NCBI GenBank assembly: GCA_963740905.1 | Contig: CAVUFY010000012.1 | Coordinates: 213,040-277,039 of the forward strand | Direction: 5' to 3' | Length of the DNA: 64,000 bases | Origin: an uncultured delta proteobacterium | GTDB taxonomy: Bacteria; Desulfobacterota; DSM-4660; Desulfatiglandales; HGW-15 | Shown: piece after piece, positions 44,000 to 63,781 of the stretch | How positions within the stretch are numbered: position 1 is the first letter of the stretch | Layout of the letters: the number at the start of each line of letters is the position of its first letter | The notes under the pieces: generated by a model | Database searches by the model: none | Told to the model about the DNA's origin: nothing | The model's input: the letters and a program-made list of their open reading frames with translations, nothing else | Program-made: the position numbers and the translations under genes

Positions 44000-44010
44000 A
44001 TGCCTCAAGC

Positions 44011-44292: not shown

Positions 44293-44403
44293 TCGTAGAC
44301 CTCCTTTCACACGGGTTACAAGGACACGCTCGCTTCCCTCAATAATCCACGGTCGGGAAGAGCCTCCTGTCCGTGAGCGGCAGAAACATGATTTTATGAA
44401 TTC

Positions 44404-44766: not shown

Positions 44767-44997
44767 AATGAATTCTCTTAAACATTTGATTTGCACCTAT
44801 GCCGACCTGGCAAATCCCTAATGCCTGACACGTCAGGTGGGACAAGACGTCCTGCCCATAGGCGGATCCGTCCGTACCACTGGCTATCCATTTCAGAAAC
44901 CTCTGCAGCAACCCGAGGTTCTCAGGTTTTTGTCGGAACGAAGTTACGGCCGGAGGGGAGGAAACCTGACTCAAACCGCTTTCATTTCCGATTCTAG

Positions 44998-45363
44998 TTA
45001 CATTCCTGCGCGGCACATGGTAGCGATCCTTTGATAAAGCCGCAACACGATGGCTCCCCGAGGGCATTCCTCGGCGCATCTTCCGCAGCCGATGCAGCGA
45101 GATGCACGCACCAGAGCAGTGTTTTTGATTGCAATGGCCCCGACCGGACAGACAGTCTCGCATACGCCGCAGCCAAGACACCTTTCTGAATCGATAACGG
45201 CGACGTACAAAGGGAGTCCTGGCTTTTGTTGGATCTCACTGATACGCCGGCTTAACGTATCGAGGCGTGCTCCTATCGCTTGAGCCCTTTGTTTCAGTAA
45301 CAGGAGTTCCTCTCGCTGGCCGTCCGTCACTTTTTCCGCCCCGCTCGCATCTCGCCCTTTCAC
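44998..45363 (-). CDS. Coiled-coil + 2x[4Fe-4S] ferredoxin-domain protein
   Basis: The GTG start overlaps the upstream stop (GTGA). ...REELLLLKQRAQAIGARLDTLSRRISEIQQ then CLGCGVCETVCP and CIGCGRCAEECP. Confidence 0.65.
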   Translation of the reverse strand: MKGRDASGAEKVTDGQREELLLLKQRAQAIGARLDTLSRRISEIQQKPGLPLYVAVIDSERCLGCGVCETVCPVGAIAIKNTALVRASRCIGCGRCAEECPRGAIVLRLYQRIATMCRAGM

Positions 45364-45601
45364 TCCCTTGTCATGGCCGTTCCACACTTGGGACATTTCT
45401 GTTCGTAACAGGGGCTCCCCATCTGATGGGTTGCTCTTTCCCCGCAGTTCGGGCAAACGCAATATCCGCCCGGGCCGGCGCCAAAACCACCTCCTCGCCC
45501 TTTCCCCACTTCCTCCTTGGCCCCGGCCGCCGCCTCTTCCCCATACCTCTGCCTGTTCCCGGTCCCTGGCCTCTCGGGCCTGTTCCGTCTCCTCTCGGCA
45601 T
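45360..45601 (-). pseudogene. DUF5320-like Gly-rich + Zn-ribbon protein, frame broken twice
   Basis: MPRGDGTGPRGQGPGTGRGMG (frame A), RGGGRGQGGSGE (frame +1), then GRGGGFGAGPGGYCVCPNCGERATHQMGSPCYEQKCPKCGTAMTRE* (frame +2). Both shifts fall in G/A runs within 45493-45545. Confidence 0.55.
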
Positions 45602-45656
45602 TTTGCTTACCTCCTTTCGAATTGATTTAACGGAAAACCTCCGATCGTTTTATATG

Positions 45657-46518
45657 TCAAGACCTTGTGCCAGATCTTCGCCAGATCTTTTTGACTGCCC
45701 CGGCGGCCTCGGAATGGCCGTCATATTCAAAAATGGTCTTCCCCTGGACCATTGCCTTTGTAAAGACTGGATCAAATGGGATTCGACCCATCACCCTTAT
45801 CTGCTTTCTCCCGGGCAAAGTCTTCTATGGCCCGTCCCTGGTCGGGATTGAGATCGAATTTGTTGACGCAGACTATGGCCGGGACCTTGAAAAAGGCAGC
45901 CAGTTCGGCTACGCGCTCCATGTCGTGCCTGCCCGAAACCGTGGGCTCTGCCACGATGAGGACCGCCGTTGCCCCGCCAAGGGAAGCGATCACCGGACAC
46001 CCAATGCCTGGAGGGCCGTCTGTGAGCAGCAAATCCAGGTTCTTTTCTTCCGCAAGCTTCTTGCCTTGCTGCCGGATAAGGGTCACGAGTTTGCCCGAGT
46101 TTTCTTCCGCAATGCCCAGCCTTGCGTGGGCCATGGGGCCGAAGCGGGTGTCGGAAATGAACCATTCCCCGCATGTGTTCAGGGGAAAATCAATCGCTTC
46201 TTCAGGGCAGAAATAGTGACACACACCACAGCCCTCGCAGGCGATGGGGTCCACCACAAAATCTTCGCTGATGGCGTTCCACCTGCACAAATCTCGGCAA
46301 CGACCACATTGGGTGCATTTGTCCTGATTGATTACGGCCATATGACCGGACTGAAAATCATGGCGCTCCATGATCCGTGGGTCCATGATCAGATGAAGAT
46401 CCGCCGCATCCACATCCGCATCACAAAGCACCTTGCCCTTTGCCAGGGAAGCGAAGGCGGCCAATATGCTTGTCTTCCCTGTCCCTCCCTTGCCGCTTAT
46501 GACAACCAGTTCCTTCAT
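45657..46518 (-). pseudogene. MinD/ParA-like P-loop ATPase with a 4Fe-4S ferredoxin insert, C-terminal frameshift
   Basis: ISGKGGTGKTS, two Cys clusters (CTQCGRCRDLC; CEGCGVCHYFCP) and DGPPGIGCPVI. After ...EDFAREK the homology continues in the +1 frame as QIRVMGRIPFDPVFTKAMVQGKTIFEYDG... (shift window 45797-45817). Confidence 0.7.
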
Positions 46519-46561
46519 CCAAATCTACCCCGCCTTACCTTTCATGTTTATAAGACTCCAT

Positions 46562-47403
46562 CTATTGAGCAATAATTTCTTCAATTCGATGGAATAAATC
46601 CTGGAATTTCTGCTTCCACTCGGGCATCACCTCGACGAGCATCTCCCCCTTCGAGTAGGACTCCGCGATTTTACGATCAAAAGGGATCTCCATCAGGATG
46701 GGCATCCCCTCGCTCTCTGCATATGTCCCTCACCTGATCATCGCCCATATCCGAGCGATTGATGACTAGCCCGCAGGGAATCCCGAGAATATTCACGGCC
46801 CCCACAGCCAGCTTGAGGTCATGGAGGCCGAAAGGGGTGGGTTCTGTAACCAGCAAGACGAAATCCGCTCCTTTCATGGAGGCGATCACTGGACATGAAG
46901 TCCCGGGAGGGGCATCAATGATGGTCAACAACCCCGGTCGTGTATATTCTCGGACTTTTCTGAATAAGAGGAGGGGACATGGCCTCTCCGACCCTTAACC
47001 TGCCGTGCACGAATTCCAGGCCGTCCCTGTGCCCGATCTGGATGACACCCAGTTCACGCCCCACCTCGGTAATGGCCCCATCGGGGCACACCTCCATGCA
47101 TCCGCCGCAACTGTGGCAGAGCTCGTGGAACGGCAAAACGGTCTCACCAATGACCACAATCGCCTTGAACTGGCAGATCTCATTGCACTTCCCGCAGAGG
47201 GTGCATTTTTCCATATCCACTTCGGGCACAGGGGTGGTTATGGTCTTAACCCCTTCAATCGCAGGCTGGATAAAGAGATGGGCGTTGGGTTCTTCTACAT
47301 CGCAGTCCAGGAGCTGCACGCCGGATTCAAGTGATACGGCCAGATTGGTGGCCACGGTCGTCTTTCCCGTTCCTCCTTTTCCGCTCGCTATGCTGATAAT
47401 CAT
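46562..47403 (-). pseudogene. Second MinD/ParA-like Fe-S ATPase, two frameshifts
   Basis: IASGKGGTGKTT, CTLCGKCNEIC, CHSCGGCMEVCP. The frame changes at the A4 run 46956-46959 (...PPLIQK / VREYTRPGLLTIIDAPPGTSCPVI...) and at the G4 run 46706-46709 (...ICRERG / MPILMEIPFDRKIAESYSKGE...IIAQ*). Confidence 0.7.
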
Positions 47404-47433
47404 CCGTCGCTCCTCATCGTCTTGATGCGTGTC

Positions 47434-47904
47434 TCATTTTTCGGGTCGTGTTCCCGGTTCGAGATTATCTTTTCTAAGCTGTTTCCTCATATAGTCGTCG
47501 AGGGCTTCCTGGAGCGTTTCCGCAGCGAGAAAGGCGCAGTGCCGATCCTCCTTGGGCAGACCGCCAAGAACATCGAGGATCATTTCGCCCGTAATCTCCG
47601 CAATCTCGTCGGAACTCCTGCCGTGGGCAAGCTCGGCTGCGAAAGAACCGCAAACCGTGCTGGAGCCACATCCATCAGTTTGAAATGTCGCCTCTTTCAC
47701 CCTGTCCTTTTCGAATCTCAAAAAAATCTCCATCGTGTCGCCGCATGTCCCCTTGACACGGCCGTACCCTTCCGGATTGGGAATCACTCCGATGTACAGA
47801 GGCTTAAGCCATCTTTCGAAAGCTACCTGCCCGTATGTCTCCCTTGTCTCTTCATAGATCTGATCCTGTAACGCCCTGGCAAATTCATCGAGTTCGTCAG
47901 CCAT
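47434..47904 (-). CDS. IscU/NifU-N-like Fe-S scaffold protein
   Basis: KGTCGDTMEIFL...QTDGCGSSTVCG...EDRHCAFLAAETLQEAL. Confidence 0.8.
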   Translation of the reverse strand: MADELDEFARALQDQIYEETRETYGQVAFERWLKPLYIGVIPNPEGYGRVKGTCGDTMEIFLRFEKDRVKEATFQTDGCGSSTVCGSFAAELAHGRSSDEIAEITGEMILDVLGGLPKEDRHCAFLAAETLQEALDDYMRKQLRKDNLEPGTRPEK

Positions 47905-47921
47905 TGCGCATTCCTCGTTCT

Positions 47922-48495
47922 CTATTTATCCTCAATTTCTCTGAGTCTTGATTCGATCGATTCCATTTGCTTTCGCATTTCGTCAGCCTGTTGTCTGAGA
48001 CGGGCAATTTCTTCCTTTCGGGATGGGAGATCCGGCTCCGGATTGATCGGCACTCCTGCCGCCGGTCATGCCTCTCCCGCGGCCTATTCCCCCGCCCATG
48101 CCGCGGCCCATCCCGCGGCCCATCCCGAAATGGCTCTGTACACTGGGGGCTGTTGTGGGGGAAAGCTCCCCTGCCTTGAATCGCTCAACCGCCTTCCGGA
48201 CCTGGCCCGTTATTCCGGTTAGCACCTGAATTCCGGCGGCTCCAAAGGTTTGAAAGGCATTGGGGCCGCAGTTCCCGGTCAGCACAACCGAAACGCCTTT
48301 GCTTGCCATGAGCTGGGCCGACTGAATGCCGGCGCCGCCCCCCAGCGCGATGTTCGGATTCTCTATGGGTTCGAAATCCAAACCGTCCGGATCGATGATT
48401 AAAAAGTATGCACATCGTCCAAACCGTGATTCCACTGTGTCTTCGAGTGTGGGTCCGGTAGAAGTCACAGCGATTTTCATCCTATTCTTCGACAT
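47922..48495 (-). pseudogene. NifX/NifB-like domain + Gly/Met-rich linker + DUF5320-like coiled coil, one frameshift
   Basis: MKIAVTSTGPTLEDTVESRFGRCAYFLIID...VVLTGNCGPNAFQTFGAAGIQV..., then GMGRGMGRGMGGG. After ...GAGSPI the +1 frame reads RKEEIARLRQQADEMRKQMESIESRLREIEDK* (shift window 48018-48030). Confidence 0.65.
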
Positions 48496-48642
48496 AGTTT
48501 CTTTCTCCTGTTTTAGTTTTTTCTTCTTTGACGATAAGATCTCTGTTCCGTCCGAACTGACGCGAGGTTAATCAGCCGGCTGAAAGGCGTCTCTTCCTTC
48601 GGATCGTTTCTTGATTCCTCCTCACTAAGCGCTCAGGAAACT

Positions 48643-49635
48643 TCAAACGCAGAAACGGCATCCTTTTTTAACATTATTCACACGCGGGTATGAGCCTATC
48701 CCTTCTCTGATTGCGGCGACAAAGTAAATGGAACCACTTGAGCGTTCAGTGTGGATTTGTCCTTGCCGCAGGAGGTTGCCAAGGTATTTAGACACCTCGT
48801 TGAGATGCATACCGAAGGCACCCGCAATCTCCTCCGCCGTGCAGGGCCGCCTGTTTAGCATGGAAATGATCGCCTCCCGATTGGCTCGGATTTCAAAACC
48901 GCCTTTATCCTTGTACTCTGCAATCACTTCCGCCGGGGGTCGAAATAGATGACACAGGGAGGCTAAGCGCTCGCTGGAAAGGGGTGCAACAAAATCCTCT
49001 GCGGGAGGGCGAACAGCCGTATTCAAATGAATCCGATCCGGTTTGAGCAGATCCGCCAGCGCAGCAATCTTTGCCACATCGGAAGGAATCGAGTTCATAC
49101 CCGCAACAAGGAACACTTCTATCCACATCTCTCCTTTGAACTCATTGCGGAAGGCCTTTTGCCCCTCAATCAACCGCTTGAAATCGAGATCCGGATGCGG
49201 ACGGTTCACCCATCCGTAAGACGCCTGGTCCCACGCGCTCAGAGAAATCTTGACGATATGGGCTTGCAAGGCTTGCCTGCGGACTTCCGGCAGATAAAAG
49301 AGAGAGCCATTTGTCAGCAAAACCGCTTTTATAACGCTATTCTTTCTGACAAACCCGAGCACCTCCCCAAAGCAGGAATGAAGCGTTGGTTCTCCGGAAC
49401 CGGAAAGGGTGATATGATCCGCCTTTCCACCCCTTTTCAACCAGTTCCCGAGCTCATCGAGCACTTCCCCAACAGGCACATATTCCCGCCTGGTGACCGT
49501 CTTGCTTGGGGTTGGTCCAAGCTGGCAAAAGACGCAATCCTGGCTGCATGTCTTATAAGGCGTTACATCCACTCCCAGAGACCGTCCCAGTCGACGTGAC
49601 GGAACAGGTCCGAATATATATTTGTATTCTCCCAT
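48643..49635 (-). CDS. Radical SAM protein with a C-terminal winged-helix-like domain
   Basis: PSRRLGRSLGVDVTPYKTCSQDCVFCQLG (CxxxCxxC)...ITLSGSGEPTL. The C-terminus is ...EEIAGAFGMHLNEVSKYLGNLLRQGQI. Confidence 0.8.
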   Translation of the reverse strand: MGEYKYIFGPVPSRRLGRSLGVDVTPYKTCSQDCVFCQLGPTPSKTVTRREYVPVGEVLDELGNWLKRGGKADHITLSGSGEPTLHSCFGEVLGFVRKNSVIKAVLLTNGSLFYLPEVRRQALQAHIVKISLSAWDQASYGWVNRPHPDLDFKRLIEGQKAFRNEFKGEMWIEVFLVAGMNSIPSDVAKIAALADLLKPDRIHLNTAVRPPAEDFVAPLSSERLASLCHLFRPPAEVIAEYKDKGGFEIRANREAIISMLNRRPCTAEEIAGAFGMHLNEVSKYLGNLLRQGQIHTERSSGSIYFVAAIREGIGSYPRVNNVKKGCRFCV

Positions 49636-49659
49636 TGGCTAACTGGTCTTCCTTTCGAT

Positions 49660-50001
49660 TCAACAGTGGGGGCATCCTGTCATTATAAATCTTGGGCCTC
49701 TCAGGGAACCGTTCAGATAAGCATCCAACACTTGATCTGCTTGTCCGCAGATGAACGGGATCAACCGAATCCCATAGCCTTCCACGAGACTGACGAAGAA
49801 ATCCGAGATAGCGCCGCAGATAAAAATCTTTGCCTCGAGGTGAGCGAGCCTTCTGGCGCGGTAGAACACGGACTCTGTGTTAAGAGAGTCAGTACGCCGG
49901 CACCGAATGGCTCGATCTTCAACATCCACGACAAGCAACTGCCTGGCCGAGTCTGCAACAGGAGAAATCCGGTCTTCCCAGACGGTCAGGACCACTTTCA
50001 T
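49660..50001 (-). CDS. NifX/NifB-like small protein (paralog of 31060-31422)
   Basis: MKVVLTVWEDRISPVADSARQLLVVD...FICGAISDFFVSLVEGYGIRLIPFICGQADQVLDAY. Confidence 0.65.
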   Translation of the reverse strand: MKVVLTVWEDRISPVADSARQLLVVDVEDRAIRCRRTDSLNTESVFYRARRLAHLEAKIFICGAISDFFVSLVEGYGIRLIPFICGQADQVLDAYLNGSLRGPRFIMTGCPHC

Positions 50002-50030
50002 TGTCTATCTCCCCCTGTTGCGTCTAGTAC

Positions 50031-50046
50031 GGCAAGATATGTGCCA
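50031..50046 (-). promoter_or_regulatory. Candidate sigma54 promoter of the NifX-like gene
   Basis: The minus strand reads TGGCAC-atatc-TTGCC, 29 nt upstream of the ATG, with a GGGGGAG RBS in between. Confidence 0.6.
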
Positions 50047-50763: not shown

Positions 50764-50779
50764 AGCAATCCATATGCCA
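50764..50779 (-). promoter_or_regulatory. Candidate sigma54 promoter with a ~190-nt leader to MoaD-like copy 3
   Basis: The minus strand reads TGGCAT-atgga-TTGCT. Confidence 0.6.
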
Positions 50780-51020: not shown

Positions 51021-51638
51021 TTATTCCGGCTCACTTGGTTCATCATAATGAAGGAGACGCTCCCGCCTGATCGAGTACGCCAGGAATTCTGAGCAGTAGT
51101 CACAAAAGGCGAGAGATGCCCTATCCAGGTCAGCAAGGTTTCCCGAGTAGTGCATCAGGCACTGTGTGTTCAGGCAATGGGCCATATTGAAGAGGTGGCC
51201 CAACTCATGAATGGCCACCTTGACCAGTCTCTCGACGATTTGATCGAAAGAAACGGGAAGCCTATCTGTGGCCTTGCCCAGTCTGTAGAGGGAGGCAAGA
51301 GCATACCTGCCCCCCTCATTGGCTTCTCCCAGAACATGGGTGAAGATAGGAATGAAAAGATCCACGTCCATCACGCAGATCACTTTATCCATCTCCTCAT
51401 CAAAGGGCATGGAATTTAAAGCCTTGAGGATAATCGCAGCATTGTACTGTCCCCGCTTTTGATCGTAGGCGTAGGCGGGGTTTTGAAAAGGAGAAAGAAT
51501 ATGGGCCTCCAGATTGAGGTGGGTTTGGATATAGGTCGCGACACCATCCAGCGCCGCGTCAGAGACCTCACCAAAGGGTGCCACACCGATGCATATTTTT
51601 TTCAGATTCATAAGGGAAGGGGATTCCAAAAGGGTCAT
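51021..51638 (-). CDS. amzA: Archaemetzincin (peptidase M54)
   Basis: HELGHLFNMAHCLNTQCLMHYSGNLADLD......CDYC. Confidence 0.8.
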   Translation of the reverse strand: MTLLESPSLMNLKKICIGVAPFGEVSDAALDGVATYIQTHLNLEAHILSPFQNPAYAYDQKRGQYNAAIILKALNSMPFDEEMDKVICVMDVDLFIPIFTHVLGEANEGGRYALASLYRLGKATDRLPVSFDQIVERLVKVAIHELGHLFNMAHCLNTQCLMHYSGNLADLDRASLAFCDYCSEFLAYSIRRERLLHYDEPSEPE

Positions 51639-51654: not shown

Positions 51655-53001
51655 TCAAAGAGGTCTTTTCAGTTGATAGCGATTGATCATCTTGTGAAGG
51701 GACACCCGGTTAACCCCTAAAATTTTGGCCGATTCCGTGATATTCCAGTCCTGCTCTTCAAGAATTTCTTGAATATAATCCTTTTCCATCTCCTTAAGGG
51801 TTCGCCCTTTCCTGAATTGGATAGGAGAAGGTCGGAGGAAAGAGAAGTCCTCTACCCCAAGAGTCCTGGATTTGGAAAGCACCACCGCGCGTTCGATAGC
51901 GTTCTCGAGTTCCCTCACATTTCCGGGCCAGCCGTAACTCTTCAGGAATTCAATGGCCTCAGTGGCCACTCGGTCTACCAGCTTGGTGGTCTCATGACTG
52001 TACTTGTTCAGGAAGTGCTTGACCAGAAGCAGAATATCTTCCTTCCTTTTTCTCAGAGGAGGCATGTGCAGTGTGATCACATTAATCCTATACAATAGGT
52101 CTTCCCTGAACCGACCCGCGGCAACTTCCTCATCCAAGTCTCGTCTGGTCGAAGATAACAGTCTGAAATCCACATCGATCGGCTCTCTATCGCCGATTCT
52201 TATGATCTTTTTCTCTTCCAGGACCCGCAAGAGATCCACTTGCATTCTGGGGCTGATCTCTCCAATCTCGTCAAGGAAAAGCGTCCCCCCGGAGGCCACC
52301 TCGATGAATCCTTTCCGAGCTCGATTCGCCCCGGTAAAGGCACCTTTTTGGTGGCCGAAGAGTTCACTCTCCAGGAGGGCCTCGGGCAGGGCGCCGCAGT
52401 TCATTGCGATAAAAGGGCCTTTGGATCGGAAGCTCTCGGCATGGATGGCCTTGGCCACCAACTCCTTACCGGTTCCCGTTTCTCCTGAGATGAGCACGGA
52501 TGATTCACTCTGGGCAACCTGCGGTATGAGCTCGAATATGGCCGTCATGGGCGGTGACTGGCCGATCATGTTATCAAATCGCGTGACCTCTTCCAAAAGC
52601 CCCTTGACATAGTGATATTCGGACGTCAGCTTTCGTTCACGGGCAATTTTCTCGAGGACCAGCGCCAGTTGATCAGGCTTGAAGGGTTTCAGCAAGTAGT
52701 CGCTCGCTCCCAGCTTCATTGCTTCAATGGATGATTCGATGGAACCATATGCGGTAATGATGATGACGACGGTGTCCGGATATCCCTCCTTAACGTGTTT
52801 CAAAAGTTTCAAACCGTTCATGCGGGGCATTTTCATATCCACGAACAGGACTTCAAAGGGTTTTTTCTCCAGGATAGCCAGTGCCTCATCGCCGCCGGAG
52901 GCAGCTTCCACCATGTGGCCGGCTTTTTTGAACCAGTGGTAAAGGGATTCCCGTACGATCAATTCGTCATCCACGACCATGATTCTCAATCTCTCATCCA
53001 T
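51655..53001 (-). CDS. NtrC-type response regulator (REC - sigma54 AAA+ - Fis HTH)
   Basis: IMVVDDE...VLFVDMKMPRMNG, GETGTGKE, a canonical GAFTGA loop, and ...SAKILGVNRVSLHKMINRY. Confidence 0.92.
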   Translation of the reverse strand: MDERLRIMVVDDELIVRESLYHWFKKAGHMVEAASGGDEALAILEKKPFEVLFVDMKMPRMNGLKLLKHVKEGYPDTVVIIITAYGSIESSIEAMKLGASDYLLKPFKPDQLALVLEKIARERKLTSEYHYVKGLLEEVTRFDNMIGQSPPMTAIFELIPQVAQSESSVLISGETGTGKELVAKAIHAESFRSKGPFIAMNCGALPEALLESELFGHQKGAFTGANRARKGFIEVASGGTLFLDEIGEISPRMQVDLLRVLEEKKIIRIGDREPIDVDFRLLSSTRRDLDEEVAAGRFREDLLYRINVITLHMPPLRKRKEDILLLVKHFLNKYSHETTKLVDRVATEAIEFLKSYGWPGNVRELENAIERAVVLSKSRTLGVEDFSFLRPSPIQFRKGRTLKEMEKDYIQEILEEQDWNITESAKILGVNRVSLHKMINRYQLKRPL

Positions 53002-53015
53002 CGTCTCGCTCCAGC

Positions 53016-54560
53016 TTATTGATCAGCCAACGGAAAGCGAAGGGAGAAACATGTCCCCTGTCCGACCTTGCTGTGGACCTCAATCCTGCCATCGTGATTC
53101 TTCACGATGCCATAGACGATCGAGAGCCCCAGGCCGGTGCCTTCTCCCTCTTCTTTGGTGGTGAAAAAGGGATCGAAGATCTTGTCGATATGTTTCTCAG
53201 GAATCCCATAGCCTGAGTCTTCGATGATAATCCAAGCCTCTTTGTCCGCGTCACCGGATTTCAGGGTCACCTTCAGATCTCCACCGTCGGGCATGGCCTC
53301 GACGGCGTTGAAGATCAGATTCAATAAACACTGCTGGAGCTGGTTTACGTCACCTCGAATAATCAGAGGTTCTTCAGCGCAGTCAAGAATCGGGGTGACG
53401 TCTTGGAGTTCCATCTTGTGCCGGGTTAGTGAGAGAACCGCTTGTATTACCTCTTTCAGTTCCACCTCCCTGGCTTCCATAGTAGACTCTCTGGCAAAGG
53501 AAAGGAGCCCGGATACAATCGCGCCGCAGCGCTCGAGCTCTTTCGACATGAGGCCGAGGTAATGGTTGAATTCTCCAAGGTCATTGGCAGTGGGTTTGCC
53601 TTTGCTCAACATGGACTGCATGAGATGGGAGAATGTCAGCAGGCCCTGGATGGGATTGTTGATTTCGTGGGCGCAGCTCGCGGCCAGCTTTCCGAGTGAT
53701 ATCAATCGATCCTCCTGAACCAGTTTTTCCAAGTCCGTCTTCAGCTCCCTGAGCCGCATCTCCCAGCGGGAAGAGAGCTGTTCCGTGATGTCTCTCCAAA
53801 TCTCGATCACCCGGACGATCTCTCCACTTTCATTGGTCCTGAGGGGATAAGTTTCAAGATCGCAGTATATTCTCCTTTCCCTGTCTATCACATGTTCATG
53901 GATCACGTGCGCCGATTGGCCGGTCCTCAACGTCTCAACCAGGGGGCATCCCATTTCCGGGAGCCAATTCGAGCAAGGGGAACTTAATCCATGGGTGATC
54001 TCGTGACAATGCCCTCCGATCACTTCTGCCTTGGACTTGTTCACGGCTTTCAGATAGCCCTCACTGGCCTCTACGATAGTGAAATCCGGTTTTAAAACCA
54101 CAATCCTTTCGTGGGCTTGCTGCAAGAGAAACCTTGAAACCATCCTTTCCAGGGCGACTTCCTTTTCCTTAAAGCCTAGATCCCTGATCGTAAGCAAGAG
54201 AGTCTGGAACAGACCGCTAATCCGATGATCGAGAATCCATAAGCCCTCTGGTCTGAGCCGAGTCAGTTCAAGGAGCACGTCCTGACTCTTGGTCAGTTCG
54301 AGGATACCGTCTAGATCTCGAATTTCTAAAATGTCCCGGTAGTCTTGAGTGGTGAATATCCCCAAATCCCGGGCGAGCCGAAACCCCTCGGCCTGCGGGT
54401 CAATGTCACAAACCCCCAGGATTCTGACCTTCACACGGGGAAAGGAGATTTGCCGAAAAAAATCGATGAAAAACCTGCAGGTTTCACCGCCTCCCACGAA
54501 AGCGAGGTTCAATGTCAGCCATTTTGAATTTCGGGGTGGCTTCTTGGTCTTTTTCTTCAT
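53016..54560 (-). CDS. Sensor histidine kinase (PAS with a Cys/His-rich pocket)
   Basis: [27 protein letters not shown]-box [13 protein letters not shown], and DSGYGI...GTGLGLSIV. Confidence 0.9.
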
Positions 54561-54664: not shown

Positions 54665-57600
54665 TCAAATCTGGTTGACCATGGCCATGATCTGCTCGTC
54701 ATCAAAACCCTTAAGCCGAATAGCTCCGCTCCGGCACGAGGCTACACACAATCCACAGCCCTTGCATAAAACCGGATTGATTTCCGGCGAACCGTTTCCG
54801 AAGACAGTAGGCGCCCCAAAAGAACAAATGTCTACGCAGACACCGCACCGGCTGCAAGAGGCAGGATGTATTTGAGCAATCAGGCCGCTCACGAGTGCTT
54901 TACCCGCTGCCAGGTATCCGGCGGCACGGCCGGCTGCTGCCATAGCTTGGGCAATGCTTTCGTCCACAGACTTGGGAGAATGGGCCAGTCCGCAGAGAAA
55001 CACCCCTTCGGTAGCAAAATCGACCGGTCGCAGCTTGGCATGGGCCTCCACGAAAAAGCCGTCCCCATCCACAGGAAGCTTAAAAAGTTTTGCGACTGGC
55101 CCATTGTCGGGGGCTATGATGGCAGTGGCCAGAACGAGTAGGTCTGTCTTTATTTGGATCGGTCTTTGCAAAGTCGGATCAAGGACCGTTACCTCCAAGG
55201 CATCATCCCCTCTTGACAGAACGCGGGGTTTGCTATCTACGTCGTATCGGATGAACAGGATGCCCTTTTTGCGGGCTTGAGTATACAATGCTTCTCTTTG
55301 CCCGTAGGTTCTCAGGTCGCGATAGAGGACACAGATATCCAAATCAGGATTTCGACGGCGCATTTCCAATGCGGCTTCTATGGTATGAGTGCAGCATACC
55401 CGGCTGCAATAGGGCCGGCCGGGCTCGCGAGAGCCCACACACTGGATGAAGATCGCCGAACGGATTCTTTTCAGTTCCGGGTCGTCTTGGACAAGAAGCC
55501 TGTCCAGCTCTAATTGAGTGATCACTTTGGGATGCTCGCCATAGCAGTACTCGTTGGGCTTGAACTCTTCTGCTCCAGTGGCTATGACGGTCACTCCGTG
55601 CTTTAGAACTGTCTTTGCGCCGTCCTCTTTTCGTGTGAGCGTCGATGTGAAGTTACCAACGAAGCCCTCGACCTTGGATAGGACTGTAGTGAGATAAACA
55701 CGGATGAGGGGACCATGTTCCACTTCATTGATCAGTTGCCTCAGGTAGTTGCGTATGGATTCTCCTTTCCATGTCTGGTGGAGAGACCTGGCCACGCCTC
55801 CCAGCTCACTGTTCCGCTCGACCAAATGAACCTGAAAGCCCTGATCCGCCAGGTTCCTGGCTGCCGTCATGCCTGCGATTCCTCCCCCGAGGACAAGGGC
55901 CTCAGGATGCATCCCCACTTCAGTTTCCTGAAGGGGCTCCAAAAGGGCCACCTTTGCAACAGCCATCCTTACCAGATCCTTAGCCTTTTCCGTGGCCGAA
56001 GTCGGGTGACCGCTGTGGACCCAGGAATCCTGATTCCGAATGTTGGCCATCTCGAAGAGGTATTTGTTCAAGCCGGCATTCAGCAGAGTCTCCTGGAAAA
56101 GGGGTTCATGGGTTTTTGGTGTGCAGGCGGCCACAACCACTCGATTAATCCCAATTTCCTTGATCACCTGTGACATCTTTACCTGGGTATCCTGAGAACA
56201 GGTGTAAAGGTTGTCTTCAACATAGACCACATAGGGAAGAGATTTTGCGTAATTCCGAACCGCTGGCACATCCACCACGCCCCCGATATTGATGCCGCAT
56301 TGGCATACAAAGACTCCAATGCGGGGAGATTCTCCGAGCACATTGATCTCTACCGGCCTCTCGGCAACCTGGGTTTGAGACCACCTGCTCTCCTTAAGCA
56401 ATGCGCTTGACGCGGCTGCAGCCGCAGAGGCCTCTATAACGGATTGGGGAATATCTTTGGGGCCTTGGAAGGATCCGCAGGCATAAATTCCAAGCCTTGA
56501 AGTGGCCACGGGGTGGAAACTGTCGGTCTTCGCGAAATGATGTTCGTCAAGCTCCACTCCCGCCCGGCGCGCAAGTTCAATGGTCTTTTTTCCAGCCTCA
56601 AAGCCTACCGACAAGACGACCATGTCAAAGATTTCGTCTTTGGTCTTTCCTGTGTCATCGACATACCTTATATTTAGATCACCCTCTCCCGACGTTTCAA
56701 CACTATGAATTCGGGAGCGAATGAAGCGAACGCCAAGCTCCTTTTGAGCGCGCGTGTAGTACTGCTCGAACGCCTTACCATAGGTGCGCATGTCCAGATA
56801 GAAAATGGTTGCGTCCAAGTCTGAATGTGCATGGTCCTTCGCAATCATCGCCTGCTTTATGGCATATGTGCAGCAGACCGAAGAGCAATAAGCGTTCCCG
56901 CTGTTACGATTGCTTCGTGAGCCGACGCACTGGACCCAGGCAATCCTTTTGGGCTCCTCCCGGTCATAAGGACGCATCAGACGCCCCATAAACGGGCCGG
57001 AAGCGCTGAGCAGTCTTTCAAATTCCAAGCTGGTGACCACGTTGGGGGAGGCGCTATAGCTGTACATGTCCAGTTTGGAGGGATCAAAAACCCTGTTGCC
57101 GGTTGCGATGATGATCGCTCCCACCTCCAGGACCCTTTTTCGAGGTTTGTCGTCGTAGCGCACCGCCCCTGCTAGGCAGATCTTTTCACAGAGCCCACAG
57201 CCAATGCACGCATCCCGATCGATCGCATACGACAGGGGCACAGCCTGCGCATAGGTGATGTAAGTGGCCGCGCGCCGGTCAAGACCGCAGTCGAACTCGT
57301 TGACCGCCCTGACCGGGCAGACCATACTGCACTGTCCGCAGGCGGTGCACTTCTTCGGGTCAATGTATCGCGGGCGGTTGGATAAAGTGACCCGAAAACG
57401 GCCGGGTTCACCTTCCAGTTCCTTGACTTCCGTACTGGTGATAACGTCAATGTTGCGATGCCGGCCGACCTCGACCAGTTTCGGCGAAATGATTCACATG
57501 GCGCAGTCGTTGGTGGGGAAAGTCTTGTCCAACTGGGACATGAGCCCGCCGATGGTAGGCGATTGGTCCACAAGGTGGACGTAGTATCCCAAAGCGGAAA

Positions 57601-57685
57601 GATCCAGAGCAGCTTGCATGCCTGCGATCCCAGCGCCCACCACCATCACGGCGCCTCTGTGGTTGTTGGCTGTCGATACGCTCAT
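54665..57685 (-). CDS. hdrA: HdrA-like flavoprotein selenoprotein (Sec encoded by TGA 57494-57496)
   Basis: ORFs 57494-57685 and 54665-57325 are in the same frame. ...[12 protein letters not shown]-[TGA][18 protein letters not shown]...[12 protein letters not shown]... has 56 open codons bridging the two, and the TGA replaces the Cys of the HdrA motif NDC.MC.LSPK. Confidence 0.85.
57461..57478 (-). other. Candidate SECIS hairpin (HdrA 1)
   Basis: mRNA CUGGUCG-AGGU-CGGCCGG: a 7-bp stem including 2 G-U pairs, starting 15 nt after the UGA. Confidence 0.55.
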
Positions 57686-57740: not shown

Positions 57741-58601
57741 TCAGAGACCACCCCGCGGCCGGGCCGGAACGGCGTTTGGTTGCGGCCTGAGGACTGCATT
57801 AGGATTAGAATCATGACTTCCTCGTGTCGATCTTTCCAGGGATCCATAACCCGGGTGGACAAATTTTGGTGTCGTTCCCTGATAGGATTCGATTTCAGCG
57901 TGGTGCTGTCTTTCCAGTTCGCCCAGCCGAAGGGAGACGGTGTAGACAGGCAACCCGGTCAAAAAGGCAATCTCCCTGACCGACAAAGGCTCCCGCATAA
58001 TCGCCTCTGAGACGAGGGCACTCTGGTATTCTTCCTCTGTGGCCTGCTGCAAAAGATTTTTGTAATGTTCTTCGGGGACGCTCTCACCATAAACATTTCC
58101 CTCCCGGGTAAGCGAAAGCTCTATTCCCATGAGCCACCGCAGTCTCTGTGAGGTTAAGGACGTTTCAACAGCCTCCAGTTCCATTTCATACCGGGCAGGA
58201 TCAAAAGGCCCAAGATTTCTTGTCATCTCACTGAACTGCGTCACATATTCTGCAAAAAGTTTACCTTCCGCTGCGCTCACCCAACGCAGGCAGAGTCGGT
58301 CACCACCAATCCCTGAGAGATCCAGCAGCCTTTTGACGACCTCCATCTCCTTCGCCACATGGACATTACCGTACAGGTAATGGCATTCCCCCATGTGTCA
58401 GCCGGAGACAAAGATGCTGTCAAATCCTGTTCTAAGACCACGTATCACGAAAATGGGGTCAACCCGTCCGGAGCACATGGTTCTGATGACCCTGATTGCA
58501 GGAGGGTATTGAATCCTCGACACACCTGCCAGATCCGCGCCTGCATAGGCACACCAGTTGCAGAGGAATGCCAAGATCTTCGGTTCAAATTGCTCAGTCA
58601 T
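57741..58601 (-). CDS. mvhD: MvhD-like selenoprotein (Sec encoded by TGA 58398-58400) with a ~200-aa C-terminal extension
   Basis: ...ILAFLCNWCAYAGADLAG...IRTMCSGRVD...FDSIFVSG-[TGA]-HMGECHYLYGN. The TGA replaces the first Cys of the G-C-x-x-G-(D/E)-C-H motif (GCLEGDCH in the Cys copy at 9444-9881). Both ORFs are in the same frame. Confidence 0.8.
57778..57804. repeat. 27-nt dispersed motif, copy 3 (inside the 3' end of the mvhD-fusion ORF)
   Basis: ggttgcggcctgaggactgcattagga. Confidence 0.55.
58364..58382 (-). other. Candidate SECIS hairpin (MvhD)
   Basis: mRNA CAUUACC-UGUAC-GGUAAUG: a perfect 7-bp stem starting 15 nt after the UGA. Confidence 0.55.
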
Positions 58602-58711: not shown

Positions 58712-61700
58712 TTACATCTGCACTTCAAAAAAGCTCTTCACCAGTCGATCCCATCCGATCTCGGGAAAGTGGCCGAAGAGATCCGGAATAATCTCGCCTC
58801 CGGTGGCGGCGAGACGCTCGTATTCCTCCCCGAGAAGTCGCAGAAGTCTTTCCGTTTCTTTCTCCATCCATCTCAGCCTTTGTTGACCGGAAAGCAAGCC
58901 TTTCAGATCGCTTTTAAACGCAACAGGTTCCAAGATGATCAGCCATCCCTTCTCATAGGGATCCTCAGAGAGGGTTTGAGTCTGATCCAGCACATTTGCG
59001 TTCACATCGAAGATCTTTCCTGTTACAGGAGAGAGGATATTCGCTCTGTGACCACCCCGTGTTAAGAGCCAGCCCATTCGGCCCTGATGTAAGAAGGTCC
59101 CCCTTCGCGGGATCTCCACGCCATCGGGCCGGCCGAGCACCTTAAGCGTGAAATCGTCGACACCGATCTTCACCCTGCCGCCACGTTCAAGAGATAGCCA
59201 ACTGTGGCCCCTGTGGAAGTAATAATCATCTGCCATGCGACAGCCTAAAACGGAGGAGGAAGATTTGCCTCTTGCAGGTCGATGAAGAGGCTTGAACGCC
59301 ATCGCGTTTTCTCCGCCCGCCTGAATAGCCGCATAGATCTCCGTGTCTCGGAAGTGCTTCATGTCTATGGCTTTCTGCGGACAAACCGCGGCACAGAGGC
59401 CACATCCCTTGCAAAGGGCCGGAAGGTTTTCCGCGCGGTATCCCTTGCCGTCAGCCTTAACAAGCCTCACCGCGCCAAAGGGACAGGATGTTTCACAAAG
59501 ACCACAGCCAATGCAAAGTTTTTCATCGATGACCGAAACGATCGGTTCGACCTCCACGTATTCCTGACTGAGCACCATGGATGCCCGCATCGCCGCCGCC
59601 TGTGCCTGGGCAATGGATTCTTCGATGGGTTTGGGGTAATGAGCCAGGCCGCAGAGGAAGATGCCCCCTGTTGAGAAATCCACTGGCCGCAGCTTTGCAT
59701 GAGCTTCCATGAAGAAGCCGTCCTTGTTCAGGGGGACCTTGAAGGATTTGGCGAGCGCCTCGTTCTCGGCGGGCACAATGGCGGTAAACAGGTTCACCAA
59801 GTCGACGTCCATGCTGATGTGGGCCCTTAAAATAGGATCCTTCACTGTGATCCGCACTTTCTCCTTTCCATTGACCAGGACCTTCTGCACAGAGGGTTTG
59901 TCGTCGGGAGAATAACGGATGAAGATTATCCCGAGTTCGCGAGCGCGGCGATAAAGGGATTCCCGTTGGGCATAGGTTCTCATGTCGCGGTAGAGGACAT
60001 AGATTTGCTGTTCCCGCTTTCGCTCTTTCAGTGAAATGGCCTTCTTGACAGATGCAGTGCAGCAAACCCTCGAGCAGTAAGGTCTTTCCGGCTCTCGCGA
60101 CCCGACGCACTGGATGAGGGCAATGGCCTCTGATCGTTCGATACGTTCCGGTTCCCTTTCAAAGAGGTCTTCCAACTCGTGCCAGCAGGTCACACGGTCC
60201 GTTTGGCCGCAGAGATACTCGTTCGTCTTGACAGGATGTCCGCCTGTCGCGAGGATGGTCACACCGTGAGACAGTCGACGTTCTTGGTGATCTATTTCCA
60301 CGGTGGTGGTGAAATTTCCAAGGAAGCCTTTAACATCCTTTACCTGAGTGCTCAGCAGAACTTCTATGTTGCGGTGCCCTTGGATCTCCTGTTTCAGCCG
60401 GTTAAGATAGGCCTTTACCTCTTCGCCTTTCCAGGTTTCTCGGACCTTCAAAGCATATCCGCCAAGCTGAGCATTCTTTTCGATGAGATGGGTCTTGAAT
60501 CCCTGCTCAGCAAGGTTCAAGGCAGCGCTCATGCCGGAAATCCCTCCGCCGATCACCATGGCAGAACGAACTATTTCAAGGCGCAGAGGCTCTATGGGTG
60601 AGGAAAGGCAGACCTTTGAAACGGCCATCCTCACAAGGTCCTTGGCCTTCTGGGTCGCCTGCCGGGGCGTTTCCTTATGCACCCAGGCGGCATGGTCACG
60701 GATATTTGTGAATTCAAGCAGGTAACGATTTAGTCCGGCCTCGCTCATCGTCTCCTGGAATAAAGACTCATGGGTTCTCGGCGAACAAGCGGCTACCACG
60801 ATGCGGTTGAGCCCTTGATCCCGGATGACGTCTCGGATCATTTGCTGAGTATCCTGACTGCAGGTGAACATGTTCTCGGCCGCGTAGACGACCCATGGAA
60901 GTTTTTTTGCATAGTCCTTTACCTCAGGCACGTCTATGACGCTCCCGATGTTCACGCCGCAATGGCAGACAAATACGCCGACCCGCGGAGGTTCCTCACT
61001 CACCGAGTTCTCTTCCGGGTAGCATTTTTTATGGGTAAGGGTATGGCGAGAATTCTTGAGCAGTGCTGCACACTGACTCGAAGCGGCGGAGGCCTCGGTG
61101 ACCGACTGGGGGATATCCTTGGGACCCGAAAAGCCGCCGCAAACGAAGATTCCCGGAACGGAGGTGCAGGTCGGGGAGGTGCAATCGGTCTGCACAAAGC
61201 CGTCAGAATCCAAGGCAATCCCCAATTTGTCCGCTATTTTCAATGAATCCTTGGAAACTTCGAGGCCCACGGAGAGCACGACCATGTTGAAAACCTCAAA
61301 GCAAATTTTGCCCTCCTCATCAACATAAGAGAGCTTAAGGTCATCAGAGCTTTGACCTGCGGGCTCTATGGTGTGTATGCGAGATCGAATGAAACGGATT
61401 CCGGCTTCCTCTCTGGCCCTTTGGTAGTACCGATCAAATTCTTTGCCATGGGTGCGTATATCAATGAAGAAAATAGCCGTGTCCAGGCCATGCCGTGTGT
61501 GCTCTTTCGCTGTAAGCGCCTCTTTGATGGTGTACATGCAGCAAACGGATGAACAATAGCCGTGGTTTAGATCTCTCGATCCCACGCACTGGAGAAAGGC
61601 AATCCTCCTGGGTTCTATTCCGTCGGAAGGGCGAGTCAGATGACCTTGAGAGGGTCCGGTGGAGCTGAGCATTCGTTCGAACTCCAAGCTGGTGACCACG

Positions 61701-62350
61701 TTCTGGAACTCATCGTAACCGTATTCACGGAGGGTCCGCGGATCGACAGGTTTGAGCCCCAAAGCGAGGACCAGGGCTCCCACTTTGATCTCATAGCGCT
61801 TTGCCTGTTGAGAAAAATCTATCGCTTTTGCCGGGCACAATTTCTCACAGGCTCGACATTTCCCCTTTTCAAAATAGAGGCAATGTTCAGCGTCAATAGC
61901 GTACTTCAGAGGAACAGCCTGGGGGTACCGCACATAGGCTGCTTTGCGCCGGCTCAGACCCTGGTTGAATTCGTCATCTACTTGGCGTGGACATTTTGTG
62001 GCACAAAGGCCACAGGCAATGCACCTGCTTGTGTCCACATAGCGCGGGACCTCATGGAGGGTGACCTCGAAACGGCCGGCCGAGCCCCTGACGGCTTCGA
62101 CCTCTGTTAACGTGTGGAGAAGAATGTTTGGGTTCCGGCCGACCTCGACCAGTTTGGGTGAGAGGATTCACATGGCGCAGTCATTGGTTGGAAACGTCTT
62201 GTCCAAGGCACTCATGATCCCGCCAATGGCCGAGTCTTTCTCAACAAGGTGTACCAGATATCCTGAGCCGGACAAGTCAAGGGAGGCCTGTATCCCGGCG
62301 ATTCCACCGCCGATGACCATAACCGATCCTGTGGTCTCCATACGAGTCAT
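58712..62350 (-). CDS. hdrA: HdrA-like selenoprotein (Sec encoded by TGA 62168-62170) fused to a C-terminal GcvH-like domain
   Basis: ...[12 protein letters not shown]-[TGA][17 protein letters not shown]... is in frame with the 1108-aa ORF (43 bridging codons). The last 174 aa (58712-59236), MADDYYFHRGHSWLSLERGGRVKIGVDDF...SPVTGKIFDVN...DPYEKGWL, are glycine-cleavage-H-like. Confidence 0.85.
62135..62152 (-). other. Candidate SECIS hairpin (HdrA 2)
   Basis: Same CUGGUCG-AGGU-CGGCCGG, 15 nt after the UGA. The spacer differs from HdrA 1. Confidence 0.55.
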
Positions 62351-62474: not shown

Positions 62475-63638
62475 TTATCCTTTTACTTGAGTACGAAGGA
62501 AGATGCGAACGAGCGAATCCCATCCCACCTCAGGGAAGCTTCCGAACAGGTCTTCTGTGGGCTCGCCGCCTGTGGCTGCCAGTCGCGCATACTCGGGTCC
62601 AAGGGACTCAAGGAGAAGCCGATTTTCCCTTTCCATCCATTCCGAGGTTTGCCGGCCGAAATAGAGCGCTTTCAACTCATTCTTGAGATAGTAAGGGTCG
62701 AGCAGGAACAACCATCCGCCGTGGTACGAATCCTGATGGCAGAGGGCCGGATTATCTATTGCTTTGGAGTTGAGAGCTACTACCTTCCCCGACAGAGGCG
62801 ATTGCATGGGCGCCTGGTGGCCGTTGCGAAACATCGCACATCCCACCTCTCCCTGCTTTAGGGAAGCCCCGACAACGGGAAGTCGCAACTCCCTTGCCTT
62901 GCCGAAAACCTTTGCCACGAAGTCGTCCATGCCGACCCGCACATACCCGCCCTGTTCGAGGTGGACCCACAAATGCCCTAAGTGATAGTAATAATCGTCA
63001 GCCAGCGTGTAACCTGATATCCTGCTGTACCTCGGCTCAATAAAAGATTCGTGTTTTGCTCTCGCGGAATGATTTTTGTAGACGCTGCAGCGGAAACATT
63101 CGTGGTTCTCTTTACACTCCTCTGGCATTCCGGCTTTGCCTAGCAGGGCATAGATACACGGCTTCGCGGCCGTTTCGTACGTCTCCTTTATCTGTTCAGC
63201 CCAGTCGGAGGGCGCAGCCCTTCTTCCCCAGCGAACCTCATGTCCCATGGCACGGCGCATGTTCAGGTCGAATTCGCAATGATCACAGTCACACTCATTG
63301 TCGCAAAGGTGAAAGTTGATGATGCGAGCCTTCATCCATATGCATTCCTGTCTTGCAAGAGGGGCAATAGGGGGATTCTTCTTGAGTTCCTCATAAGAGA
63401 CGAGCACGACGCCATCATGGTGCAAATTCTGAACATACTCAGCGCCGGTTACTTTGATCACCTCTTCGTAATCGAAAGGCTGATCAATGCTGATCCAATT
63501 TTGTGGAGCAGGTTGTTTGATGCATGCCGGATTGGTGTCTTTCTCCGGTTTTTCTTGAGCAGAACTCTTTTCCATGAGCACGAGAGCCGGTTGTTTTTTT
63601 TTAGTCTTCTTTCCCCTCCTTGATGGTTCAGTTTTCAT
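62475..63638 (-). CDS. Cys/His-rich protein with a C-terminal GcvH-like domain
   Basis: AAAGGAGG RBS 7 nt before the ATG at 63638 (MKTEPSRRGKK...). The middle has HLCDNECDCDHCEFD and CKENHECFRCSVY. The C-terminus, LADDYYYHLGHLWVHLEQGGYVRVGMDDF...SPLSGKVVALN...GGWLF..., is paralogous to the HdrA-fused domain. Confidence 0.6.
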   Translation of the reverse strand: MKTEPSRRGKKTKKKQPALVLMEKSSAQEKPEKDTNPACIKQPAPQNWISIDQPFDYEEVIKVTGAEYVQNLHHDGVVLVSYEELKKNPPIAPLARQECIWMKARIINFHLCDNECDCDHCEFDLNMRRAMGHEVRWGRRAAPSDWAEQIKETYETAAKPCIYALLGKAGMPEECKENHECFRCSVYKNHSARAKHESFIEPRYSRISGYTLADDYYYHLGHLWVHLEQGGYVRVGMDDFVAKVFGKARELRLPVVGASLKQGEVGCAMFRNGHQAPMQSPLSGKVVALNSKAIDNPALCHQDSYHGGWLFLLDPYYLKNELKALYFGRQTSEWMERENRLLLESLGPEYARLAATGGEPTEDLFGSFPEVGWDSLVRIFLRTQVKG

Positions 63639-63765: not shown

Positions 63766-63781
63766 TGCAATGGGGATGCCA
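63766..63781 (-). promoter_or_regulatory. Candidate sigma54 promoter of the GcvH-like/hdrA/mvhD/hdrA operon
   Basis: The minus strand reads TGGCAT-cccca-TTGCA, about 125 nt upstream of the ATG at 63638. Confidence 0.65.

Follow-up and report, generated by a model that had tools for sequence, protein, structure and literature searches.

Within a 64,000-nucleotide stretch of the genome of an uncultured delta proteobacterium (assembly GCA_963740905.1, contig CAVUFY010000012.1, positions 213,040 to 277,039; hereafter referred to as the window), the HdrA paralogue HdrA 2 and the 387-aa Cys-rich protein encoded upstream of it both terminate in a domain featuring the fold of the glycine cleavage system protein H (GcvH) and devoid of the lysine that carries the lipoyl group. 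Based on domain architectures and synteny, this lysine-less GcvH-like domain is proposed to carry no cofactor and to serve redox complexes under sigma54 control as a docking or adaptor module, an interpretation to which a probability of about 0.55 is assigned. Three points go beyond a preliminary description of the region, namely the large size of the family to which the domain belongs, the predominance of a free-standing Cys-rich form, and the tie to a sigma54-dependent two-component system and an M54 peptidase.

Fold of the Domain and Loss of the Lipoyl Lysine

The minus-strand segment 58712-59236 comprises the final 174 codons and the stop codon of the HdrA 2 gene (Table 1). The encoded 174 residues matched the Pfam family GCV_H (PF01597) with E=5.4e-17 over profile positions 2-120 of 122, and residues 217-335 of the 387-aa protein matched the same profile with E=3.8e-16. 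The two window domains are 47% identical in a gap-free alignment of 174 residues (E=2e-59), and the previous proposal that they are GcvH-related paralogues was thereby corroborated. An AlphaFold2 (AF2) model of the 174-aa domain, built with 35 family sequences, represents one compact domain with a predicted local distance difference test value (pLDDT) of 92.3 and a predicted template modeling score (pTM) of 0.87. Comparison of this model to the Protein Data Bank (PDB) by means of Foldseek yielded template modeling scores of 0.9 for the entries 1onl, 3klr and 3ab9, with root mean square deviations of 1.3-1.7 Å over approximately 125 residues. These results confirmed that the GcvH fold of both domains is genuine.

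HMMER alignments to 1onl (T. thermophilus), 1dxm (pea) and 3ift (M. tuberculosis) are gap-free from G52 to P70, which indicates a lipoyl hairpin of canonical length, and place the lipoyl lysine opposite G62, followed by a histidine. The same assignment was obtained by MAFFT alignment with E. coli GcvH, so that the loss of the lysine described earlier was reproduced by two methods. A lysine elsewhere in the hairpin loop that might have occupied the lipoyl position was also looked for, and neither TRGGHRAN (HdrA 2 copy) nor FRNGHQAP (387-aa copy) contains one. Moreover, no conserved lysine column is present in a family alignment of 162 sequences. As deduced from these alignments, lipoylation at the canonical site is impossible. 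Furthermore, residues Ser12 and Glu14 of the pea H-protein, which hold the loaded lipoamide arm, align to G10 and S/T/A12 of the family in the HMMER alignment.

The NCBIfam GcvH models NF002270 and TIGR00527 (cut-offs 117 and 115.85 bits) assigned 65.6 and 55.9 bits to the HdrA-fused copy and 58.3 and 47.8 bits to the upstream copy, i.e., approximately half of the respective cut-off. That the domains are ordinary glycine-cleavage or lipoyl-relay H proteins, as suggested by the Pfam match and by public sources naming every family member 'glycine cleavage system (H) protein', has a negligible probability, since they lack the lipoyl lysine, score far below the cut-offs, possess an additional tail and have, within ~13 kb, HdrA, MvhD, a two-component system and a peptidase as neighbors rather than GcvT or GcvP; this identity was rejected. 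The families TIGR03077 'not_gcvH' (chlamydial) and NF045810 'GcvH_rel_desulf' (Desulfovibrio), featuring cut-offs of 144 and 150 bits, were likewise rejected, with scores of 38.3 and 34.8 bits and of 22.7 and 25.9 bits. A decaying relic domain was rejected because of residues that are invariant across phyla and the high model confidence.

Translation of the HdrA 2 gene gave a frame that is uninterrupted except for one in-frame TGA (62168-62170), located within the HdrA motif NDCAM-U-ILSPK. Between 58715 and 62167, the frame is open from stop to stop, demonstrating that the GcvH-like domain is truly fused to HdrA 2 and is not encoded by a separate neighboring open reading frame. A linker of approximately 40 residues joins the domain, which contains no cysteine, to the HdrA part. 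Homology to orthologues continues across the TGA position in tblastn alignments, identifying the protein as a selenocysteine-containing HdrA. In both HdrA genes of the window (62110-62170 and 57433-57493, minus strand), an identical short hairpin, CUGGUCGAGGUCGGCCGG, follows the UGA codon by approximately 16 nt; it is consistent with a selenocysteine insertion sequence (SECIS) element, and it also encodes the conserved peptide KLVEVGR. An Rfam search of the window gave no match, and the hairpins downstream of the three TGA codons of the operon were no more stable than shuffled sequence (z +0.4 to -1.2). The selenocysteine assignment is therefore one by homology and not a SECIS call.

The Helical Tail and the Vestigial Hairpin

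The C-terminal extension shared by both copies, which had been noted previously as unfamiliar, proved to be a real feature comprising residues ~128-174. It is present in both copies and in nearly all of the best 150 family representatives, is not recognized by Pfam, and has no structural match in the Foldseek comparison against the PDB. AF2 predicted helices at residues 117-135, 137-143, 153-156 and 162-169; the conserved W123 is located just before the extension, at the end of the core.

Covariation was analyzed for 258 family domains using mutual information with average product correction (APC). The top-ranking pairs connect the hairpin strands to the tail, namely 60-152, 60-155, 65-155, 65-160 and 68-171. 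R60 is accompanied by D152 in 117 sequences, and V/I/A60 by G152 in 70 sequences, the latter group featuring a basic residue at position 155. Furthermore, K or R at residue 63 occurs with D at tail residue 145 in 113 domains and H or N with T in 55. These patterns suggest that the tail packs onto the vestigial lipoyl hairpin.

The preliminary description assumed that a conserved histidine is presented in place of the lysine. Histidine is indeed found at residue 63 of both copies and is the commonest residue within the close subfamily of Cys-rich and HdrA-fused proteins (H24/N12/K3 of 42); this part of the assumption stands. Its conservation does not extend to the family, in which the column is occupied by R48/K32/H27 of 162, and the preceding lipoyl-lysine column by the tight-turn residues G75/S21/D19/E18. 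Judged from the alignment, the hairpin histidine is a habit of the subfamily and not a conserved functional residue.

The related idea of a swinging arm, in which the histidine or a neighboring residue would bear a new covalent prosthetic group, is considered highly improbable. In its favor, both window copies and 24 of the 42 close relatives have a histidine directly after the former lysine position, and the hairpin is as long as that of true GcvH. However, position 63 varies among R, K and H family-wide and is N in 12 of 42 close relatives, and its covariation with residue 145 is more readily explained by a contact within the domain than by an exposed, reactive side chain. Hairpin-to-tail covariation and the single-domain model jointly speak against an arm that swings freely, the domain being tethered to HdrA by the ~40-residue linker and modeled as a rigid unit with its tail. 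In addition, no modifying enzyme is conserved in the neighborhood. Of the two roles offered previously, the docking module is thus the one favored by the evidence, and the swinging arm found no support.

Size, Conservation and Architectures of the Lysine-Less Family

When 1.84 billion cluster representatives were scanned exhaustively with HMMER, 3537 matches were obtained with E<=1e-3 and, of these, 1322 with E<=1e-10; true GcvH presumably accounts for part of the weaker matches. Nearly all of the best 150 representatives (E<4e-22) span query residues 1 to ~170, i.e., core and tail, and the family defined by the core and the ~50-aa helical tail comprises at least 150 clusters at 50% identity. 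A profile of the family alignment (A3) scored the window copies with 1.3e-66 and 3.4e-64. Residues conserved family-wide within the core are H8, G10, H11 and W13, G25, D27, D28 and F29, P70, G73 and N79, as well as P93, Y94, G97 and W98; toward the C-terminus, W123, L131, G146-G147, W162 and F169 are conserved. Those defining the family (H8, G10, H11, W13, D27, D28, F29, W123, G146-G147 and W162) are all present in both window copies, and no cysteine column of the GcvH-like domain is conserved in the family alignment.

The segments preceding the domain are diverse. Members carry nothing N-terminally, a single transmembrane helix (~225 aa), an HmcD-like transmembrane segment (~232 aa), or, in proteins of ~230-310 aa, one or two Cys4 modules of the type found in the 387-aa protein. 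Further members are fused to a response regulator receiver (REC) domain (P0056, P0015, P0067), contain tandem double GcvH-like domains (P0012, P0043), combine Fer4, MvhD and Molydop_binding domains (P0022, P0033) or represent C-terminal fusions to HdrA (P0011, P0014, P0270-P0276). The HdrA fusions are rare, with ~8 clusters at 90% identity versus more than 200 free-standing Cys-rich clusters. Hence, the lysine-less GcvH-like family is large, and by far more of its members are free-standing Cys-rich proteins than HdrA fusions.

The Cys-Rich Protein as a Candidate Redox Carrier

An alignment of the Cys modules (A4) revealed eight nearly invariant cysteines with C-x11-C and C-x13-C columns. The modules had no match in Pfam or the PDB, the PDB sequence search returning noise only (E >0.7), and were modeled by AF2 with pLDDT values of 60-83. 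Residues ~47-95 of the 387-aa protein (63340-63500, minus strand), which are disordered in the AF2 model, contain the segment ISIDQPFDYEEVIKVTGAEYVQNL...YEELKKNP; it also occurs in P0005 and P0009 (IGPDQPFDYDDVVAITGPEYVRYL...YEKLRKNF), both of which lack Cys modules.

The cysteines raise the possibility that the Cys-rich protein is a protein-borne redox carrier, serving as substrate or acceptor of an HdrA complex without HdrB and HdrC. The redox role of lipoate on GcvH or LbpA would then fall to the Cys4 modules with their CxxC motifs, acting either as a disulfide/dithiol pair or as an Fe site of the rubredoxin type, and the GcvH-like domain would be the recognition handle. This possibility appears unlikely. 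It would account for the second acceptor, which has to be explained for an operon encoding HdrA and MvhD and no HdrB or HdrC, and for the eight nearly invariant cysteines arranged in two C-x11-13-C-x5-C-x2-C modules; moreover, the lipoate-carrying GcvH-like protein LbpA serves Hdr-like complexes in sulfur oxidizers (PMC6067878). However, many members, being membrane-anchored, REC-fused or HdrA-fused, lack the Cys module, the HdrA-fused window copy has no cysteine at all, and the modules, which have no detectable relative of known function, might bind structural Zn.

Genomic Context in Desulfobacterota and Other Phyla

Related loci within the Desulfobacterota were identified by scanning one genome per species with eight close domains as query. 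In total, 80 loci were returned, nearly all of them from metagenome-assembled genomes (MAGs) of Desulfobacterales, Desulfatiglandales or Desulfarculaceae, in addition to Desulfonema magnum 4be13, a culturable carrier whose gene is located at ~1.31 Mb of NZ_CP061800. The best domain identity among them is 54%, indicating that the species of the window is not represented. Presence of genes was scored by tblastn with the window proteins. The Cys-rich N-terminus was detected in 79 of the 80 loci, the M54 peptidase in 59, the orthologue of the sigma54-dependent regulator in 51 (64-75% identity), the kinase orthologue in 46 (50-59% identity), HdrA in 40 and MvhD in 19. In the 24 loci flanked on each side by 6 kb or more, HdrA is encoded in 19, the regulator in 20 and the M54 peptidase in 21; HdrA and the regulator occur together in 15 of these, and none lacks both.

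As anticipated in the preliminary description, the HdrA-GcvH-like fusion recurs: it was found in five of the 80 loci (L001, L010, L023, L025, L049), each showing the layout Cys-rich protein, HdrA fusion and MvhD with winged helix, followed by HdrA or by kinase and regulator. The winged-helix tail of MvhD is present in 5/5 loci with the HdrA fusion and in 0/14 otherwise. The domain itself occurs in two copies in the window and in at least two copies in 19/80 loci.

Several of these loci encode a further type of HdrA. In L003 (9082-12531, minus strand), a 1149-aa HdrA contains a complete inserted REC domain (Response_reg, E=3e-31, residues 192-301), and an insertion after residue ~190 is also present in L008, L011, L013, L053, L065, L069 and L075; the HdrA gene is followed by an HdrC-like gene. 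A phospho-accepting domain inside HdrA appears to be undescribed.

Outside the Desulfobacterota, a fixed gene order was observed, consisting of a membrane-anchored GcvH-like protein, a Fer4_11 protein with twin-arginine translocation (Tat) signal (HmcB-like), NrfD (HmcC-like), an HmcD-like transmembrane GcvH-like protein, a HAMP-domain kinase, a sigma54-dependent regulator and an M54 peptidase. This layout was seen in L081/L082, L085, L087 and L088, and L083 shows its iron-sulfur and NrfD part only. In L085, L087 and L088, the genes for the Tat-Fer4_11 protein and NrfD lie between those of two single-pass membrane-anchored paralogues, and L081 encodes four copies. The corresponding segments (L081 2395-7498, L085 4038-7702, L087 4147-7717, L088 4034-7717) specify an HmcBCD-like membrane module whose cytoplasmic parts are solely GcvH-like. 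The HmcD-like paralogue features a lysine one residue past the canonical lipoyl position (D-S-K-S).

The trio of kinase, sigma54-dependent regulator and M54 peptidase is co-inherited with genes of the lysine-less family in Desulfobacterota, Bacteroidota, Calditrichia and further MAGs, and the link of the family to the sigma54 two-component system and the M54 peptidase is near-constant. The gene of P0022 belongs to a MetF/MetV-HdrA-MvhD-HdrC-HdrB cluster that has no two-component system in its vicinity. In L089 (7001-9934), a cluster of this composition, which is of the methylene-tetrahydrofolate reductase type, encodes a 977-aa fusion of Fer4, MvhD (FlpD), Molydop_binding and GcvH-like domains.

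The near-constant link also permits another explanation, according to which the GcvH-like proteins are signaling adaptors instead of structural redox subunits. They would act as transducers of the kinase/regulator/M54 unit that report the state of the redox module, i.e., cytoplasmic HdrA/MvhD or membrane-bound Tat-signal iron-sulfur/NrfD, to the kinase or regulator, or as effectors controlled by phosphorylation or proteolysis. This explanation is regarded as possible, albeit clearly less probable than a docking function. Irrespective of the redox partner, the trio is encoded next to members of the family in distant phyla, the two-component system occurs without HdrA in five of the loci with complete flanks, and REC-GcvH-like single proteins as well as REC-inserted HdrA genes occur in the same loci; furthermore, the N-terminal Cys4 or transmembrane segments seem to resemble the layout of sensor and interaction domain known from anti-sigma-type regulators. 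On the other hand, a sigma54 promoter upstream of the GcvH-like gene is equally expected for a plain regulated target, and the fusions to HdrA, MvhD and Molydop_binding domains, e.g., in the MetF/MetV-HdrABC cluster devoid of a two-component system, are hard to explain in terms of signaling alone.

Proposed Function as a Docking Module

For the docking function, the following course is proposed. Both domains would belong to a distinct, widespread subfamily of the GcvH fold that has ceased to be a cofactor carrier. The beta-sandwich core is intact, a tight-turn residue (G, S, D or E) occupies the place of the lipoyl lysine, and a helical tail of ~50 residues, modeled as part of one compact domain, has been acquired. 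Covariation of the pairs R60-D152, 65-155 and 63-145 suggests that this tail clamps the former lipoyl arm. The resulting domain may attach accessory parts, such as modules with two Cys4 sites predicted to bind metal, single-pass membrane anchors or REC, to electron-transfer modules, which would be flavin-based HdrA/MvhD complexes in the window and Tat-signal iron-sulfur/NrfD membrane modules elsewhere. In the window, the Cys-rich protein would dock onto an HdrA2-MvhD-HdrA1 assembly, its GcvH-like domain possibly contacting either the HdrA2-fused copy or the winged-helix tail of MvhD. Such domain-domain or domain-winged-helix pairing is suggested by the frequent multiple copies per system, by the tandem proteins and by the winged helix of MvhD, which strictly co-occurs with the HdrA fusion.

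Several findings weigh against this proposal. The invariant residues H8, H11, D27 and D28 surround the former lipoamide cleft and could form a ligand or metal site, making the domain more than a passive adaptor. No single partner is shared by all genomic contexts, and a single copy was present within the fetched range in 61/80 loci, so that the domain need not act as a pair. The covariation largely reflects a split into two subfamilies, and shared ancestry could yield the pattern without contact; the pair 63-145, which as a salt bridge would be expected to lead, ranks only 271 of 13,861 after APC.

A broader, more speculative proposal is that the domain is the signature module of an undescribed, phylum-spanning redox-signaling system, in which pseudo-carrier domains would couple electron-transfer modules to the kinase, the sigma54 activator and the M54 protease; this must be considered doubtful at present. 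HdrA/MvhD complexes, Tat-signal iron-sulfur/NrfD membrane complexes, Cys4 sensor modules or REC domains would serve as anchor points for the domains. If this were true, assembly or activity of the enzymes would be set by phosphorylation or proteolysis and not by transcription alone.

Gene Organization of the Window and Sigma54-Type Promoter Candidates

The genes described form one string on the minus strand in the order Cys-rich protein, HdrA 2, MvhD, HdrA 1, kinase, regulator and M54 peptidase (Table 1), placing HdrA, MvhD, the kinase, the sigma54-dependent regulator and the peptidase within ~13 kb of the GcvH-like domains. The C-terminal extension of MvhD comprises ~150 aa, and its winged-helix-like segment gave weak matches to MarR_2 and DprA_WH. 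The region from 51 to 64 kb contained neither a CCG-domain gene nor one for a ligase.

Table 1. Coordinates of the lysine-less GcvH-like domains, the associated genes and the promoter candidate in the window.
Feature	Position	Strand	Basis and remarks
Sigma54-type -24/-12 promoter candidate TGGCATCCCCATTGC	63767..63781	-	~130 nt before the ATG at 63638
387-aa Cys-rich protein ending in the second GcvH-like domain	62475..63638	-	Pfam, domain alignment; ~300-aa homologues abundant
Two Cys4 modules	63087..63344	-	C-x12-C-x5-C-x2-C, then C-x13-C-x5-C-x2-C (translation)
GcvH-like domain and extension of the Cys-rich protein, residues 212-385	62484..63005	-	Hairpin FRNGHQAP; AF2 pLDDT >93
HdrA paralogue HdrA 2, 1212 aa	58712..62350	-	Translation; in-frame TGA (selenocysteine) and C-terminal GcvH-like domain
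GcvH-fold core of the HdrA-fused domain, residues 1-127	58856..59236	-	Pfam GCV_H E=5.4e-17; AF2; Foldseek
Vestigial lipoyl hairpin TRGGHRAN	59039..59062	-	G62 at the lipoyl-lysine position, H63 next; alignments
Family-specific helical C-terminal extension, residues 128-174	58715..58855	-	Conserved L131, G146-G147, W162, F169; covariation; AF2 helices
MvhD (FlpD)	57741..58601	-	In-frame TGA 58398-58400, motif VSG-U-H; C-terminal winged-helix-like domain
Second HdrA paralogue HdrA 1	54665..57685	-	In-frame TGA 57494-57496; without GcvH-like domain
PAS histidine kinase	53016..54560	-	Pfam
Sigma54-dependent response regulator (REC-AAA+-HTH_8)	51655..53001	-	Pfam
Peptidase_M54 (archaemetzincin-like)	51021..51638	-	Pfam; co-inherited with kinase and regulator

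The strict -24/-12 motif TGGCA[CT]-N5-TTGC was searched within 600 nt upstream of the first Cys-rich gene of each locus and detected in 46/74 loci versus 0.019 expected per stretch. The operon is probably transcribed from the sigma54 promoter and controlled by the adjacent kinase and response regulator.

Further sites of this type were observed in the window. An exact consensus sequence, TGGCACATATCTTGC, is located at 50032-50046, and TGGCATATGGATTGC at 50765-50779; additional matches on the minus strand at 31438-31452, 33888-33902 and 39617-39631 include an exact one (TGGCACATGGATTGC); two of the additional matches are identical 15-mers, TGGCACACATCCTGC, ~5.7 kb apart. The window appears to be rich in such sites (70 matches with <=2 mismatches versus 55 expected). 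Downstream of the operon, an orp-like cluster (42513-50046, minus strand) encodes a radical SAM protein, two Nitro_FeMo-Co family proteins, NifU_N and two MinD/ParA-type ATPases with ferredoxin inserts, and MoaA is encoded farther down at 40645-41670.

Comparison to Known Systems

With GcvH, the family shares the fold, the hairpin length and the motifs H-x-W, G-x-(T/D)-D-(F/H/Y), S/A-P-x-x-G, V-N and P-Y-x-x-G-W. It differs by glycine in place of the lipoyl lysine, by the missing arm-holding glutamate, by the ~50-aa helical tail and by its genomic context, and H8, G10, D27 and R60 are conserved specifically in the lysine-less family.

LbpA of the sulfur-oxidizing sHdr system is likewise a GcvH-fold protein encoded beside Hdr-type genes. 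It possesses a strictly conserved lysine and two conserved cysteines, near the N- and the C-terminus, and is encoded with the sHdr genes (hdrC1B1A-hyp-hdrC2B2) and dedicated LplA and radical-SAM genes (Cao et al. 2018, PMC6067878). In contrast, the window domains have neither the lysine nor conserved cysteines, the operon lacks HdrB/C, and no lipoylation genes are located nearby (51-64 kb). Membership in LbpA was rejected for lack of the lipoyl lysine, the conserved cysteine pair and an sHdrBC/ligase context.

GcvH-L of Streptococcus pyogenes and Staphylococcus aureus (PDB 5a35) is another divergent GcvH paralogue outside glycine cleavage and gave a weaker structural match (E=1e-6). It is lipoylated and works with a macrodomain/sirtuin pair (PMC12440151). 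Unlike the window domains, it has neither the tail nor an Hdr context.

The best functional analogy is provided by the N-terminal barrel-sandwich hybrid domains of RnfC and NqrA (PF13375, PF05896), which are of the lipoyl/biotinyl type, contain no modified lysine and form a structural part of a redox complex. Sequence similarity is faint (E=0.04-0.2, one family member), and these domains belong to another branch of the fold, are N-terminal and have no helical tail. Finally, the transmembrane segment of the ~232-aa family members was recorded as a faint match to the small membrane subunit HmcD (DVU_0533, PF28260) of the Hmc complex, and these members follow HmcB-like (Tat-Fer4_11) and HmcC-like (NrfD) genes. 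HmcD itself has no GcvH-like domain, and the likeness concerns other family members, not the window copies.

A literature search, subscription journals being outside the coverage, revealed neither a publication on this family nor any account of GcvH without the lysine in an Hdr or Hmc context; within the same limit, no paper describing the HdrA-GcvH-like fusion was found, in agreement with the previous statement that this fusion is uncharacterized. The window domains are put forward as a new variant of the GcvH fold with a putative, testable role.

Implications

The name 'glycine cleavage system protein H' cannot be correct for hundreds of database entries originating from sulfate reducers, syntrophs, Bacteroidota and other groups, and metabolic reconstructions counting lysine-less members as glycine cleavage or lipoate metabolism are wrong in this respect. 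HdrA/MvhD complexes without HdrBC are common in Desulfobacterota, and the lysine-less domain and the Cys-rich carrier protein represent concrete candidates for their subunits. Furthermore, the tight link to the kinase, the sigma54-dependent regulator and the M54 peptidase, together with REC domains inside HdrA, points to a possible direct control of flavin-based electron-bifurcating modules by signals. The lysine-less domain also provides a clear case of a carrier-protein fold that was reused after loss of its cofactor.

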